A stretch of 64,000 nucleotides of DNA from the NCBI RefSeq assembly GCF_054482525.1, contig NZ_CM137006.1; one strand, written 5' to 3'. Each line of letters starts with the position of its first letter. Position 1 is the first letter of the stretch. Made by a program: the position numbers. Shown here piece by piece: positions 51,001 to 60,000 of the stretch.

Positions 51001-54000
51001 ACGCAAATGGGTGCGCAGGTATCTCACGGGCAACTGGAAACCATCCTCAATTACATTGATATCGGCAAAAAAGAGGGCGCAGACGTGCTCACCGGCGGGC
51101 GGCGCAAGCTGCTGGAAGGCGAACTGAAAGACGGCTACTACCTTGAACCGACTATTTTGTTTGGTCAGAACAATATGCGGGTGTTCCAGGAGGAGATATT
51201 TGGCCCGGTGCTGGCGGTGACCACCTTCAAAACGATGGAAGAAGCGCTGGAGCTGGCGAACGATACGCAATATGGCCTGGGCGCGGGCGTCTGGAGCCGC
51301 AACGGTAATCTGGCCTATAAGATGGGGCGCGGCATTCAGGCTGGGCGCGTGTGGACCAACTGTTATCACGCTTACCCGGCACATGCGGCGTTTGGCGGCT
51401 ACAAACAGTCGGGCATCGGACGCGAAACCCATAAGATGATGCTTGAGCATTACCAGCAAACCAAGTGCCTGCTGGTGAGCTACTCGGATAAACCGTTGGG
51501 GCTGTTCTGATGTGAAAGGCAGGCAACGTTAATAGTTGTCTGCCTTTGTTTTAGTTGTATAAAGCGGCAGTCGCTTTTAACTCATCGCTGAAAGAATAAA
51601 TATCATCGAGAGATTCAATAGGATGGCGGGTTTCGTTTTTCTCTAAGTCAAATAAACCAATATATTTTTGATTTCGATTGAAATGTAATCTACAGAGTGG
51701 TTTTCGATTATTGTCATCTACAAGTATACCAAAATAGCTTTTTGTATCTCTGTGGACTATTCGTGGTGCATCAAGCACTACGCGGACTATAGCTTTAACA
51801 ATATGAAATCCTTCAAGTTCCTCCATAGTAGTGGCAATATCGGTTTCTTCTTTATTAATACATTCTACTTCCTCATTGTGTGAATTCGAATCAATTACAG
51901 ATAATGACCCACCACCTATTGCCGATTTCAATCTTTCGTTTATTTGAGAGCCAATATATTGATTGGCAGCTTTCTTTGTTAATTTTGCAAACGTATCTTT
52001 TACCTTTTGTGTTAACATACCTTCATAAATTCTTGCTGCAAAGAATTTTACAAAATCCTCTTCAGGATTATTCATTTGTGCATGGAGAACTTTTTTAATT
52101 AAACTAACATATTTTAATTCACCTGCAGCATTAATTATTGATTCCAAATCAAATGCTGATTTAGTAAGCTTTTTTATCTCGGGAACAACTGTTTCGTCTA
52201 AGTCAAGTAGATCTATCTCAAGAAATGGTTTTTCATCCATTTTATTAGGTGCTTCTAAATCAGTAAAAAATTTATAAACTTGTCCATTGGTTAGAATAGA
52301 TATTCTTGCATTTGTTACATGAAAGTATCGAAAAAGCTGTGAAGCATGATTTATATTTAGAGGATCACCAATTTTTTTGCATTCAATGAGAATCTGAACC
52401 TCGCTATTTTTTAAGATTGCATAGTCAATCTTTTCACCTTTCTTCGTTCCAATATCGCATACAAACTCTGGGATAACTTCGGTAGGATCAAAGACATCAT
52501 AACCTAACACATTGTTAATGAACGGCATTACGAAAGCATTTTTGGTAGCTTCCTCCGTTTCAATGACTCCGGCTTGTTGTTTTATTTTTGCGGATAATGA
52601 ATTCAGCTTATCTATAAACTCCATAGACATTATAACTCCTTTTATATATATTTAATAAAAATGCGTTTGATAAAAATATAGAAAATATTTATATATTAAC
52701 GCCTTATCATTGGTCATAGTTAATGTATAACACACAAAAAATAATGTTTGCACATTGTAAATACAATGGTGAAACAAACTTGATATTTATCAAGAAAATA
52801 AAACAATGTCTTTTATTGGTTGTTTTAAACGTCCAATGAATACGAGTTGGAGCTATAGCAAGACTAGCTTCGATATCGCATGGATAATCTAATACAGATT
52901 TTTTAACACCTAATACTATGAGTTATATGTAAATTGCGAGCATCCTCGCATCTTTTCAACAAGTTACTGCACACCGTTATTCTCCTTCCGAGCGAGTCAA
53001 CTTTATCCCCCTGACGGCCCATATAAATCGCGCTATCGTGATTGTTATCGCTAATTGTGTGTGTATCGTGTGTATAATCATGGAAGGGCAGGGATGTGAA
53101 AAGTGCAGACGTGATCGCTATCCTGAAGCAGCATGGCTGGGAACATATTCGAACCCGTGGCAGTCATCATCAGTTCCGCCACCCTGTTCATCCGGGTCTG
53201 GTGACGGTTCCGCACCCTAAAAAAGATATTAAGCCCGGTACGCTGGCGCAAATTGGGCGTCAGGCTGGTTTAACATTTTAAAATTTCAGGAGGCAATATG
53301 TTTTATCCCGCCTATATCCACAGTGATCCTGACGGCAGCGCCAGCGGTTTTTTCCCTGATGTTCCAGGCTGTTATTTTGCTGGTGATACGCTGGACAACG
53401 CTTTCCAGGATGCGCGAAGTGCACTTGTCGCGCACTTCGAAACCTTATGCGAGATGAATGAAGAGTTGCCGCTTCCAGGCTCTGTGGAAACACATCTGGT
53501 CCAGCGTGCGCAGGACTTTATTGGCGGGCAATGGTTGCTGGTGGATATCAATATGAATCAGTTCGAAGGTCGGGCTGAACGTATCAATATTACGATGCCG
53601 AAAAGATTACTGAACAAGATTGATACCTACGTGCGCAATAACCCAGACTACGCCAACAGAAGTGCGTTTCTGGCGGAAGCTGCCCGGCGTGTATTGCCGG
53701 GCGCTTAATCCCGCGTTTCGATGGTTGGCGGGCAACCGCACCGATATGTTGATACTGATAAGACGCGTTAAGCGTCGCATCATGCGCTGGTTTCCTCATT
53801 CACCCAGATCCGCATTTCGCCTTCACCCCGGTTAGCCCAGCTAAACCACGGGATAAATGTCAGAGTTTGCGGCTGGCGTTTGGCTGGGGCATAGTCGTAA
53901 TGCCACAGCGGTTGCTGCTCTGGATTGCTCTGTTCATACCGGTAACCCGGTGCCTGGATTAAGATCTTATGGCGGAACAATCCTTTGCCTTCAAATGTCG

Positions 54001-57000: not shown

Positions 57001-60000
57001 TCGGTGTAGAAAAAGGTGAGAAAGTTCATGATCAGGCAAGTTATTACGGTGCCGCCTGCGTCACCCAGGCCGTAGCCTATTTTTTCCCGTACAGATAACG
57101 CATCGTCAATTTTACCTTTAGCGATATCAGCGGTAGTAATCGGTGTAGAGGTCATAGATATTCCTCGTGAATAGGGAGCAATTTTTAGTTTTATTGCAAT
57201 GACCTGATTAATTCTGCCGTGAACGGGAATATCAACAAGGCGAGAAAAGAGTAAAAAAAGGTGACGATTCCGACCTGAATTTAAAAGTGTGAAATGGATC
57301 AGGTGAAATTAATGTTTTTGATTAATAATCAAAAGGTAATGTGTTTAATCATTAATGAATAAGCGGGAAATTACATATCAATGCTCGAATTATCCATGAC
57401 GTTACCGATTAAAGTGCAAAATGGTGGATTATTTATTTCCCGTGGCGTAGGGAGGCATCCGGCAAGGCGGCTGGAGTCATGGGAAATTATCTTTGTCGAA
57501 AAAGGTCGATTAGCGATTCAGGAAGAAGAGCGGATATTTCTGGTCGATGCGGGAGAGAGTTTATTACTCTGGCCGAACCGACAGCATGTTGGGGTAGAGG
57601 ATTTTCCCGCTGATCTCAAATTTTACTGGCTGCATTTTGAGGTTAAAGCGCCGGACAACGACCCGCGCTGGCTCACTCATCTTAGCGTGCCGCAACAAAC
57701 AAAGGTTGCCGATCCGCAGGCGTTGGTGGTCCTGTTTCGCCAGTTCTTAAGCGAACAGGAAAAGCATCAACGCACTCCGGCGCTGGAGTTTATTGTGCTG
57801 CTGATTTTGCAGCAACTCACCCGTGACGCGCGTCTTGATGAACAGGCCGATGCCGCAGGTACCACGCTTGCCTGGAAAGCGCAGAAACTGATCCGCACGC
57901 AATATCATCGCCCGCTTTCTACGGCGCTTTTAGCCCGCGAGCTGTACTGCAATGCCGATTATCTTGGGCGTGTCTATCGGCGGGTGTTTCATCTGACGTT
58001 AACAGAAGCAATTCATCGCCAGCGAGTGCGCGAAGCCGAAAAGCTGTTAATTAGCGAAGCGCGATCGCTCACTGAAGTGGCGGCGTTGTGCGGGTTTAAT
58101 GACGTTGGCTATTTCCGGCAGATTTTTCGCAAACACACCGGTTTAACGCCAGCTGCGTGGAAGCGACGTTACAGCAAGGAACATATCAATTCGTAGTGCC
58201 GGGGCGATGAAGCCCCGGCGTGAGGGATTACTGCCCGTAATAGGCATTGGCCCCATGTTTACGCAGGTAGTGCTTATCCAGCAGTTCGTTTTGCATGGCA
58301 GGGAGCTGCGGCGCAAGCTGGCGCGAGAACAGGCCCATATAGGCGCACTCTTCCAGCACCACGGCATTATGCACCGCATCGGCGGCGTTTTTACCCCAGG
58401 CGAACGGGCCGTGAGAATGCACCAGTACCGCCGGGATTTGCGCCGGACTCCTGCCGCGTTCTTCGAAAGTTTCAATGATCACTTCGCCGGTCTGGTATTC
58501 ATACTCGCCGTTGATCTCCTCTGCGGTCATCTGTCGCGTGCAGGGGATTGCGCCATAGAAATAATCGGCGTGCGTGGTGCCCCAGGCAGGGAGATCCAGC
58601 CCGGCCTGTGACCAGATGGTGGCGTGGCGCGAGTGGGTATGCACAATGCCACCGATTTCGGCATAGCGACGGTAAAGCGCCAGATGCGTTGGCGTATCGG
58701 ACGAGGGCTTTTTGCTACCTTCCACCACCTTGCCGCTGGCTATCTCAACCACCACCATATCGTCGGCGGTCATCACGTCGTACTCGACGCCGGAAGGTTT
58801 GATTACCATCCATTGCCGCGTTTCGTCTATCGCGCTGACATTGCCCCAGGTGAACGTCACCAGATGGTGAGCGGGAAGCGCCAGATTCGCCGCCAGCATG
58901 TCGGCTTTCAGTTGCTCTAACATATAAATCCAGCCTCCTGCATACGCGCTTCAATCCAGCGCCGCGCCTGAATAATCTCCAGCACCGGCTCTTTGGCTTT
59001 TTCGGTCCACATCTCAATCAGGAAAGAACCGCGATAGTTCAGTTCATGCAGCGTTTTGAAGATGCCAACGAAATCGACGCAGCCTTCGCCAAACGGCACA
59101 TCACGGAACTGTCCGGGATTTTGCCCGGTGACTGGCAGGGTGTCTTTCAGATGGATTGCGGCAATACGGTCAATGCCCAGTTTCAGTTCGGCGGGAACAT
59201 CATTGCCCCAGGCGCTGAGGTTGCCGACGTCCGGGTAGACGGTGAACCACGGCGAGGCGAGCATCTCGTCCCACTTTTTCCATTTGCTGATGGAGTTCAT
59301 AAACGCGGTATCCATAATCTCCACCGCCAGCATTACTTGTGATGCCGCCGCCTGTTCGACCGCCCACGCCAGCCCTTCAGCAAAACGTTGCTGGGTGCCT
59401 TCGTCGTGGTCTTCGTAATAGACGTCATAACCCGCCAGTTGAATGGTGCGAATGCCGAGATCGCGCGCCAGGCGAATCGCTTTACTCATGATTTCCCGCG
59501 CCCGTTCGCGCACCGCCTTGTCCCGGCTGCCAAAGGGAAAGCGACGATGTGCGGACAGGCACATTGACGGAATGGCAACACCCGTTTCGATCATCGCGGC
59601 AACCAGCGAAGTCCTTTGTGCGGCGCTCCAGTCAAGACGTGAGAGCCGTTCGTCGGTTTCATCCACCGACATTTCGACAAAATCAAAGCCACAGCTTTTT
59701 GCCAGCACCAGCCGCTCCGGCCAGGAGAGATCTTTCGCCAGCGCTTTTTCATAAATCCCTAACGGATGATTACGCACGCGCGCCTCCCCAGATGGCATCA
59801 ATTTGCGCATGGAAATCGCCAGCCACCTGCGCCGGATTTGCTGCGCCTGCCAGCGCCCGCCCGGCAATAAACGCTTTCACGCGGATATCTTTAAACAGCG
59901 GCAGGTCAGCAGGGGTAATCCCGCCGGTAATGGAAAGCTCAAGGCCGATATCGGAAAGCGCCTTCATGCGTGCCAGATCGGCTTCGCCCCACTGTTGCCC

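Follow-up and report, generated by a model that had tools for sequence, protein, structure and literature searches.

Hotspots, or regions of genome plasticity, between core genes are a general concept of Escherichia coli pan-genome studies. The locus described here, the interval between aldB and sgbE at positions 51511 to 58227 of a 64,000-nucleotide stretch (the window) of contig NZ_CM137006.1 from assembly GCF_054482525.1, resembles such hotspots in its conserved flanks, its many alternative contents, and its apparent turnover by deletion and flank recombination. Unlike them, it is small and has no integrase, tRNA, or prophage, and most of the contents that alternate in it are leftovers, nested within one another, of a single old gene set that recurs in other genera, rather than imported cargo of unrelated kinds. 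In the annotation of K-12 MG1655, the same site with the same flanks reads sgbE-yiaT-yiaU-yiaV-yiaW-aldB, as a preliminary description of the window had stated, whereas the window carries intact genes for a GH127 enzyme, a transporter, and an AraC-family regulator (together, the sugar module), plus hicAB and a nuclease gene, and has no yiaWVUT.

The window is identical (100%) to the chromosome of E. coli PCN033 (NZ_CP006632.1), and the PCN033 RefSeq annotation was transferred to window coordinates. PCN033 is a porcine extraintestinal pathogenic strain of phylogroup D with an average nucleotide identity to MG1655 of 97.56% (PMC4578781). The islands analysed in its genome paper are all larger than 9 kb, and the aldB-sgbE interval goes without mention there (PMC4578781); our literature search on the locus (aldB / sgbE / yiaT) returned no relevant match.

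We consider it probable, at roughly 0.8, that aldB and sgbE, two convergently ending core genes, enclose an old presence/absence locus with many alleles, a hotspot of recombination and gene loss, rather than the site of a single insertion. Loci of this kind are known, and this one behaves as they do; its polarity is largely the reverse of that in a K-12-centred view. The preliminary description was right that the site is strain-variable and a hotspot for the exchange of alternative contents, since at least seven alleles occupy it and its content is incongruent with its flanks between E. coli and Escherichia albertii. The features of the interval and its flanks are given below with the evidence for each; orf104 is the gene for a 104-aa predicted membrane protein, and REP stands for repetitive extragenic palindromic sequence.

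49972-51510, plus strand: aldB, the left conserved flank (RefSeq annotation).
51514-52931: nuclease-specific segment of 1.42 kb (blastn breakpoints, alignment against hicAB-only alleles, and GC profile).
51515-51547: GC-rich hairpin, likely a bidirectional terminator common to the convergent aldB and nuclease genes (terminator scan).
51551-52630, minus strand: predicted solitary HsdR_N-type PD-(D/E)XK nuclease of 359 aa, labeled "type I restriction endonuclease" in RefSeq (annotation).
52932-53095, plus strand: region upstream of hicA, common to all hicAB-carrying alleles, with a short hairpin (52935-52950) at its start (comparison and hairpin scan).
53096-53281, plus strand: hicA, 61 aa (RefSeq annotation, PHROG and PDB matches, translation).
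53298-53708, plus strand: hicB, 136 aa (RefSeq annotation, PHROG and PDB matches).
53625-53737, plus strand: 3' end of hicB plus 29 bp past its stop codon, found as a relic in K-12-type and "full" alleles (alignments).
53679-53705, plus strand: part of hicB that is kept in "empty" B2 alleles (alignments).
53736-53737: junction of the 3.8-kb orf104-yiaW-yiaV-yiaU-yiaT indel (alignments and comparison with EC42405).
53737-53785: REP-like remnant from the indel junction to the GH127 stop codon (same sequence downstream of yiaT in "full" alleles).
53780-55744, minus strand: GH127 beta-L-arabinofuranosidase-like gene (RefSeq annotation, PDB matches).
53882-54071, minus strand: part of GH127 kept as a pseudogene fragment in K-12-type alleles at 89.5% identity (alignments).
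55755-57155, minus strand: predicted GPH-family (MFS_2) sugar:cation symporter (RefSeq annotation, TIGR00792).
57381-58196, plus strand: AraC-family regulator, divergent from the transporter-GH127 operon (RefSeq annotation, family models).
58228-58923, minus strand: sgbE (labeled araD in RefSeq), L-ribulose-5-phosphate 4-epimerase, the right conserved flank (RefSeq annotation).

The interval thus runs exactly from the stop codon of aldB to that of sgbE and holds the nuclease, hicAB, and GH127/GPH-transporter/AraC genes, just as first described. The REP label of 53737-53785 follows what we take to be the REP consensus. In composition, one segment of the interval stands out: GC is about 30 to 31% between 51.5 and 52.9 kb and a host-like 50 to 57% over the remainder of the interval, and the G+C content of third codon positions (GC3) is 0.24 in the nuclease gene, 0.63 in aldB, and 0.62 to 0.68 in GH127 and the transporter. 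AT-richness is therefore confined to 51.5 to 52.9 kb, and both hicAB and the sugar module have the composition of the host.

The locus was surveyed in 5,426 complete RefSeq E. coli genomes, a set whose sampling is biased. An aldB...sgbE flank query was matched in 5,377 of them, always on the chromosome and at a median of one place each. Each module was counted by a separate search. The nuclease segment occurs in 188 to 191 genomes, on chromosomes only and essentially as a single copy (192 places in 191 genomes), and the nuclease is joined to hicA in 189 genomes (3.5%). PCN033-type content is present in these 189 only, and not in K-12. Intact hicAB was found in 505 genomes and yiaWVUT in 3,727; the sugar module is intact in 2,312, reduced to a 2 to 7% relic in about 2,470, and without trace in about 640. 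An intact sugar module and yiaWVUT stand together in about 1,240 genomes (by subtraction), among them 2014C-3338 and O157:H7, and hicAB is followed by yiaWVUT in 16. Seven alleles were distinguished.

Allele 1, nuclease, hicAB, and sugar module: PCN033, 3.5%.
Allele 2, hicAB and sugar module: KGu016, about 5.5% (by subtraction).
Allele 3, hicAB, orf104, yiaWVUT, and sugar module: EC42405, 0.3%.
Allele 4, yiaWVUT and sugar module: 2014C-3338 and O157:H7, about 23% (by subtraction).
Allele 5, yiaWVUT plus remnants of the sugar module: K-12, about 46% (by subtraction).
Allele 6, sugar module alone: ST131, about 10% (by subtraction).
Allele 7, "empty," with aldB 46 bp from sgbE: B2 uropathogenic strains, about 12% (by subtraction).

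Beyond these seven there are an IS1-deleted form and an O157 form without the yiaK-sgbE operon, and across alleles the interval ranges in size from 0.05 to about 10 kb. Identity of aldB is 95 to 98% among the E. coli alleles and 92 to 93% to E. albertii. From aldB to sgbU, and likewise from aldB to lyxK (49972-60900), PCN033 differs by 3 to 7% from five other E. coli alleles; set against a genome-wide difference from MG1655 of about 2.4%, which it exceeds roughly twofold, this divergence fits alleles that are long-lived.

The breakpoints between alleles show that the interval is not one unit. On the left, similarity to PCN033 ends at 51511 in K-12, at 51513 in the hicAB-only strain KGu016, and at 51520 in the "empty" allele, so the hairpin at 51515-51547 belongs to the PCN033-type allele and is not a common aldB terminator. 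On the right, similarity to K-12 returns at 58093, and the last 104 bp of the AraC gene (58093-58196) are kept in K-12. The flanks had been called intact on both sides: the aldB and sgbE genes are indeed intact, but the supposed aldB terminator is specific to PCN033-type alleles, and on the right similarity restarts inside the AraC gene rather than at the sgbE stop codon. Where PCN033 has the nuclease segment (51514-52931), the hicAB-only alleles have 101 bp made up of half a REP and AT-rich filler, and a search of this filler for a nuclease relic found none. The orf104-yiaWVUT block, 3.8 kb long in EC42405, is a clean indel at 53736|53737 with at most 1 nt of microhomology and without target duplication; PCN033 and KGu016 have the identical junction. 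The yiaWVUT difference and the nuclease difference are separate indels with separate breakpoints.

Relics left at these breakpoints indicate the direction of change. K-12 keeps a 190-bp GH127 fragment (89.5% identity) that abuts the last 104 bp of AraC across a deletion of about 4 kb without microhomology, and a second deletion of about 200 bp, at a GGCTGG repeat, lies between yiaT and the GH127 fragment. These GH127 and AraC relics imply that the sugar module was lost by K-12 and not gained by PCN033. Of hicB, K-12 has kept a 114-bp piece of the 3' end from which 12 internal bp are missing, with REP sequences in place of hicA and the 5' part of hicB, and the 47-aa open reading frame of K-12 is orf104 minus 57 codons, in frame. 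A 49-bp core of the hicB relic occurs in about 3,400 genomes that have no intact hicAB. Even in the "empty" B2 allele a 27-nt remnant is left, which agrees with the hicB 3' end at all but one position (26 of 27) and in which the core GCTGCCCGGCGTGTATTGCCGGGC is identical. This stretch encodes AARRVLPG, part of the HicB C terminus AEAARRVLPG. HicB proteins of Enterobacter chuandaensis, Lelliottia, and "Escherichia sp. ESNIH1" end in the same conserved peptide, written in different codons; because the peptide is conserved across HicB of other lineages, the 27 nt are derived from hicB and the "empty" allele is a deletion product. The hicB relics together show that the K-12, "full," and "empty" alleles all descend from ancestors that bore hicAB.

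To judge from these remnants, K-12 is the most eroded allele and not the original state, with yiaWVUT alone intact beside relics of hicB, orf104, GH127, and AraC. PCN033, by comparison, would be a little-eroded allele that lost orf104-yiaWVUT at 53736|53737, in an order of events that we infer. Using K-12 as the reference can therefore make older, retained genes look like an "insert," and caution is warranted: K-12 appears to have lost a putative beta-L-arabinofuranoside module, a toxin-antitoxin pair, and a small membrane-protein gene, and it is also without the nuclease. The RefSeq annotation of K-12 reflects this only in part. Next to sgbE it has an incomplete "hypothetical protein" and an incomplete AraC-family fragment, which are presumably ysaC and ysaD; the hicB relic is unannotated, and the truncated orf104 is annotated merely as a 47-aa hypothetical protein. 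We also considered whether the "empty" B2 allele might come from a nuclease-bearing ancestor, given that TGATGTGAAAGGC after the aldB stop codon is shared with PCN033, but K-12-type alleles differ there at three positions only, and the match is not decisive.

The same modules are found at this locus in other Enterobacteriaceae. Homologues of the nuclease there have 73 to 85% amino acid identity and lie in the aldB neighbourhood in every locus recovered. Nuclease and aldB converge in Salmonella, in two Citrobacter species, in "Escherichia sp. ESNIH1," in Buttiauxella, and in one metagenome-assembled genome, and the nuclease is placed one or two genes from aldB in Superficieibacter, Enterobacter, and Lelliottia. 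The gene orders are as follows.

Citrobacter freundii: selA selB yiaY aldB, nuclease, yiaW V U T, GH127.
Citrobacter sp. S2-9: the C. freundii order plus transporter and AraC.
Salmonella: aldB, nuclease; the contig ends there.
Superficieibacter: aldB, orf104 homologue (54%), nuclease, GH127, transporter, AraC, sgbE.
"Escherichia sp. ESNIH1": aldB, nuclease, GH127, transporter, AraC, hicA, hicB.
Enterobacter chuandaensis and Lelliottia: aldB, yiaU, yiaT, hicA, hicB, nuclease, GH127, transporter, AraC, sgbE.
Enterobacter asburiae: aldB, yiaU, yiaT, hicAB relics, nuclease, AraC relic.
Buttiauxella: nuclease convergent with aldB.

The window and C. freundii align without a break from aldB through the nuclease (49881-52660, 80%), and a GGCAG...CTGCC hairpin comparable to that at 51515-51547 occupies the 35- to 40-bp spacer between aldB and the nuclease in Citrobacter and Salmonella. 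Nucleotide identity to other genera is 71 to 79% for the nuclease, 72 to 79% for selB, 75 to 78% for GH127, and 71 to 73% for hicAB. Since the nuclease diverges in the range of selB and GH127, that is, at ortholog level, these genes appear to be old residents of the locus at the level of the family. A recent foreign arrival of the nuclease, as its composition might suggest, is at odds with this distribution, in which it mostly lies directly convergent with aldB.

Inheritance within lineages does not account for everything, and the comparison with E. albertii gives evidence of exchange. Clusters of the nuclease and of HicB at 90% identity contain E. albertii proteins. In five E. albertii contigs the gene order is that of PCN033, with a Fic gene added between yiaY and aldB, and in a sixth an insertion sequence element lies inside the nuclease. 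Identity to PCN033 varies along the region in these contigs.

selB: 87%.
yiaY: 89%.
aldB: 92-93%.
nuclease: 98.8-99.0%.
hicAB: 98.9-99.2%.
sgbE to lyxK: 91-95%.

Compared as tracts, the islet formed by the nuclease and hicAB is 98.6 to 98.7% identical, aldB 92.5 to 93.0%, and sgbE-sgbH 92.7 to 93.2%. Misassignment of the contigs to E. albertii is argued against by the identities of selB (87%) and aldB (92 to 93%). Pairwise identity matrices group aldB and GH127 by species, whereas for the nuclease and for hicAB the alleles of one species fall among those of the other. The edges of the similar tract are sharp. In the comparison with one contig (L103), mismatches are frequent as far as 51495, none occurs between 51496 and 51700, a few are scattered up to 53711, and from 53822 they are frequent once more; what the two sequences share is the nuclease-hicAB islet, which ends at the aldB and GH127 stop codons, at 98.7% against 93% on either side. 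In another (L099), a tract of 97 to 98.5% continues to the sgbE stop codon and thus covers the whole of 51511-58227, with 92.5% on both sides. From the sgbE stop codon outwards, identity to E. albertii falls to about 91 to 93%.

An islet at about 99% between flanks at about 93% implies that the cassette crossed the species boundary well after speciation. Slow evolution cannot explain the 99% identity, because the nuclease diverges faster than aldB in comparison with Salmonella and Citrobacter (77 to 79% against 84% nucleotide identity). Among the few nuclease alleles compared, that of E. coli PT62 is the most divergent, at about 98.1% to all others, and the E. albertii alleles differ by no more than 0.6%; intact E. 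coli copies of hicAB fall to as low as 94.5% identity over hicA and its upstream region. The divergence of PT62 and the diversity of the hicA region lead us to lean, tentatively, towards E. coli as the older host.

Taken together, these observations indicate that a fixed repertoire of modules (the AT-rich nuclease, hicAB, orf104, yiaWV, yiaUT, and the sugar module) was probably present in this neighbourhood before the enterobacterial genera split. Lineages would then have diverged by illegitimate deletions, some of them later filled with REP sequences and some caused by IS1, and the surviving pieces would have been reassorted by homologous recombination through the aldB and sgbE flanks and through shared internal segments. 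By the same route of homologous recombination, a whole cassette could occasionally have moved between Escherichia species. The locus would offer a compact case of deletion, REP filling, and cross-species recombination in a single intergenic slot.

Three other explanations were weighed against this history of an old, multi-allelic locus. If K-12 had the original arrangement, the PCN033 lineage would have gained a foreign nuclease/hicAB islet and the sugar module in one event that replaced yiaT-yiaW, which is close to how the preliminary description read the whole 6.7 kb. Such an event would explain why yiaWVUT is in K-12 and absent from PCN033, why the nuclease segment is strongly AT-rich (31% GC, GC3 0.24), and why the PCN033-type allele is rare (189/5,426). 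It is nevertheless very improbable. The sugar module is host-like and complete in 2,312 genomes, about 1,240 of which (by subtraction) have it next to yiaWVUT; the relics of GH127, AraC, hicB, and orf104 in K-12 are too similar, at 89 to 95% identity over 104 to 190 bp, to be chance matches; the yiaWVUT and nuclease indels have separate breakpoints; and all the modules occur at the locus in other genera with ortholog-level divergence. What is truly missing from PCN033 is orf104-yiaWVUT alone, and the sugar module is no alternative to yiaT-yiaW.

We regard as no more credible the idea that the nuclease-hicAB islet is a self-mobile unit that targets the 3' end of aldB, with machinery of its own accounting for both the sharp edges and the spread between species. 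The edges of the E. albertii tract, which lie no more than about 15 nt from where aldB stops and about 40 nt from where GH127 stops, would suit such a unit, as would the toxin-antitoxin pair inside it and the occurrence of nuclease relatives on temperate phages and plasmids in other phyla. Against it, annotation and family scans found no integrase, transposase, or relaxase among the six coding sequences of the interval, and the direct repeats that the preliminary description had envisaged at both junctions did not appear: no direct (att) or inverted repeats bound either the interval or the islet. ARAGORN found no tRNA or tmRNA in 46000-62000, no Rfam family matched at E <= 0.1 in 51000-58600, and promoter and terminator scans gave no enrichment over shuffled sequence except for two hairpins. 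The islet is essentially single-copy, chromosomal, and confined to one locus (192 places in 191 genomes), and no second chromosomal copy and no plasmid or phage copy of the nuclease was found in E. coli, with the record NZ_CP134663.1 taken as a chromosome. The relative order of the nuclease and hicAB also varies among genera, so no fixed unit has been moving together. Purely vertical descent, in which alleles differ only by what each has lost from one maximal ancestor and nothing was exchanged, fares no better and is most unlikely. All the observed E. coli alleles could be derived by deletion from an ancestor with the nuclease, hicAB, orf104, yiaWVUT, and the sugar module, and the synteny across genera agrees with this; yet E. 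coli and E. albertii agree at about 99% in the nuclease and hicAB and at 87 to 93% in the flanks, and the 53736|53737 junction exists both with and without the nuclease, which requires either recombination or an identical second deletion.

Several points nonetheless weigh against an old locus shaped by loss and recombination. The allele shares come partly from subtraction between separate searches and not from genome-by-genome typing, and the comparison between species covered six E. albertii contigs, with Escherichia fergusonii, Escherichia marmotae, and Escherichia ruysiae outside the sample. No scar in the hicAB-only alleles tells loss of the nuclease from its gain. The maximal allele of a deletion-only model (nuclease, hicAB, and yiaWVUT) was not seen in E. 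coli; all 189 of the 189 nuclease genomes have the nuclease-hicA junction, and the genomes with hicAB and yiaWVUT that were inspected are without the nuclease. Identities of the nuclease and selB are weakly correlated (Spearman 0.45, p = 0.12, over 13 non-independent enterobacterial loci), which leaves strict co-divergence plausible but not proven. Finally, the GC3 of the nuclease is 0.21 to 0.41 in enterobacterial loci whose flanking DNA has 50 to 58% G+C, which is odd for a long-resident gene and could mean that it was repeatedly reintroduced at the same site.

The nuclease itself is predicted to have an N-terminal PD-(D/E)XK domain of the HsdR_N type, a helical middle, a disordered linker, and a small C-terminal alpha/beta domain. 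Pfam and NCBIfam searches found no helicase domain, and hence no SF2 helicase/ATPase motor, in its 359 aa, and no hsdM or hsdS lies beside it in the interval; with neither a motor domain nor such neighbours, its identification as a Type I R subunit was rejected. Compared with HsdR and Type IIG/IIL enzymes (3H1T, EcoR124I HsdR 2W00, BpuSI 3S1S, and DrdV 7LO5), it is without methyltransferase and specificity domains, and no solved structure is clearly related to the domain formed by its 90 C-terminal residues. A scan of PADLOC-DB v2.0 gave no system-specific model, just a weak N-terminal match to a Type IIG REase-MTase (E 4e-7, residues 50-181); the protein matches PHROG 4225 over its full length. 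Relatives account for at least 583 matching stretches in species-representative genomes, at 65 to 72% identity in Pseudomonas and 58 to 60% in Actinobacteria, and the latter figure reflects a degree of conservation well beyond that usual among restriction enzymes. In 87 of 88 loci (L009-L096), across Proteobacteria and Actinobacteria, the GC of the nuclease is below that of its surroundings, by a mean of 12.8 points, and over the 88 loci it tracks host GC (r = 0.67). Around 80 homologues, no cluster of neighbouring genes (clusters were not assigned to protein families) recurs in more than 15 loci, and those that come closest reflect synteny within Pseudomonas.

Our tentative reading of these features, held at less than even odds, is that the protein works alone as a DNA endonuclease in a restriction- or defence-like role that may depend on DNA modification. 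More doubtful still is the suggestion that the protein is an undescribed single-gene, methylase-less defence nuclease beside a stabilising or cooperating hicAB, whose patchy presence at a fixed locus is held by selection and not drift. If that were true, the locus would present a trans-species presence/absence polymorphism of an immune gene, and the AT-richness would be kept by selection that favours silencing a toxic enzyme or expressing it at a low level. Being widespread, unusually conserved, AT-rich, and partnerless, the nuclease is a reasonable candidate for phage-challenge work or for work on dependence on DNA modification.

A functional pairing of the nuclease with hicAB was considered and set aside as too weak: 8 of 80 species loci have hicAB no more than 5 kb away, and these represent only two lineages in three orders. 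Five Pseudomonas species (L031, L037, L041, L063, and L066) carry a hicB homologue at a distance of 2.5 to 4.4 kb from that of the nuclease. Three of these five loci have hicA next to hicB, and in L031 a gene judged from its sequence to be a putative methyltransferase stands between the hicB and nuclease homologues. This proximity could be synteny within a single clade or a hint of a functional link. Relatives of the nuclease at 40 to 70% identity were also seen in 19 records of temperate phages, whose hosts are Porphyromonas, Corynebacterium, Enterococcus, Fusobacterium, and Pseudomonas. Plasmids carry such relatives too, among them 21 records from Borrelia/Borreliella and six from Curtobacterium. 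The PLSDB record NZ_CP134663.1, which is a 4.9-Mb E. coli sequence with the nuclease at 99.7%, is taken to be a chromosome filed as a plasmid.

HicA has a GSHH motif and matches the PHROG 353 toxin (E 9e-23) and HicA structures in the PDB (4C26 and 6G26, E about 1e-16), and HicB matches 6G1N (E 3e-25), 4P78 (E 2e-21), and PHROG 497. The two genes form one operon with the toxin first and a 16-nt gap. With this order, a 61-aa GSHH HicA, and a 136-aa HicB, the pair resembles HicAB of Burkholderia pseudomallei (6G1N/6G26/4C26) and HicA3B3 of Yersinia pestis (4P78). It is unlike hicAB of K-12, whose HicB (6HPB) matches over residues 1-66 only (E 1e-5). Scanning HicA and HicB against PADLOC-DB v2.0 gave no match. 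From these similarities, hicAB is likely an RNase toxin-antitoxin pair, and it may stabilise the islet.

The GH127 protein is similar over its full length to 4QJY (E 2e-235) and to Bifidobacterium HypBA1 (3WKW, E 9e-152), and the motifs GE(A/S)F, E(S/T)CAS, and GCACCP align with HypBA1. We assume, by analogy with HypBA1, that residues of these motifs are the catalytic Glu and Cys and the zinc site. In both length and Cys/Glu motifs it is like the GH127 beta-L-arabinofuranosidases (4QJY/4QK0 and HypBA1 3WKW), and in PCN033 the gene is paired with a GPH transporter and AraC. With the NCBIfam model for aceric acid hydrolase it scores 456 bits, under the cutoff of 950. The transporter scores 332 bits with TIGR00792 (gph), over the cutoff of 231. 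The sugar module is thus likely to serve the uptake and hydrolysis of beta-L-arabinofuranosides, a prediction based on homology.

Smaller changes were noticed in individual strains. GH127 is frameshifted in the examined ST131 strain (L005, 2824-4793), a case of point decay inside an otherwise intact allele; lyxK is frameshifted in 2014C-3338 (L003, 14341-14912), and the nuclease of ETEC1738 has an internal stop codon (L107, 3041-4120). In ETEC4075 (L008, 2288-3001), IS1 comes straight after selB, and yiaY, aldB, and the nuclease are gone except for its first 27 nt (window position 52604); ETEC4068 has the same IS1 breakpoint.

The stop codon of the membrane-protein gene orf104 (EC42405, L097, 9369-9683, minus strand) overlaps the stop codon of hicB, which is read from the other strand. 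An intact orf104 is kept by a minority of E. coli and by cryptic Escherichia clades, and its homologue in Superficieibacter (54%) adjoins aldB. In K-12 it is cut to 47 aa (L002, 3876-4019), and in PCN033 its last codons alone are left (53709-53736).

A second variable spot lies just upstream of aldB, where the window has yiaY (48620-49771). A 431-aa Fic-family gene stands directly upstream of aldB in the examined B2 strains, in O157:H7, and in the nuclease-bearing strains M160133 and MRY15-131; PCN033 and K-12 have yiaY at this position, and E. albertii has both yiaY and the Fic gene.

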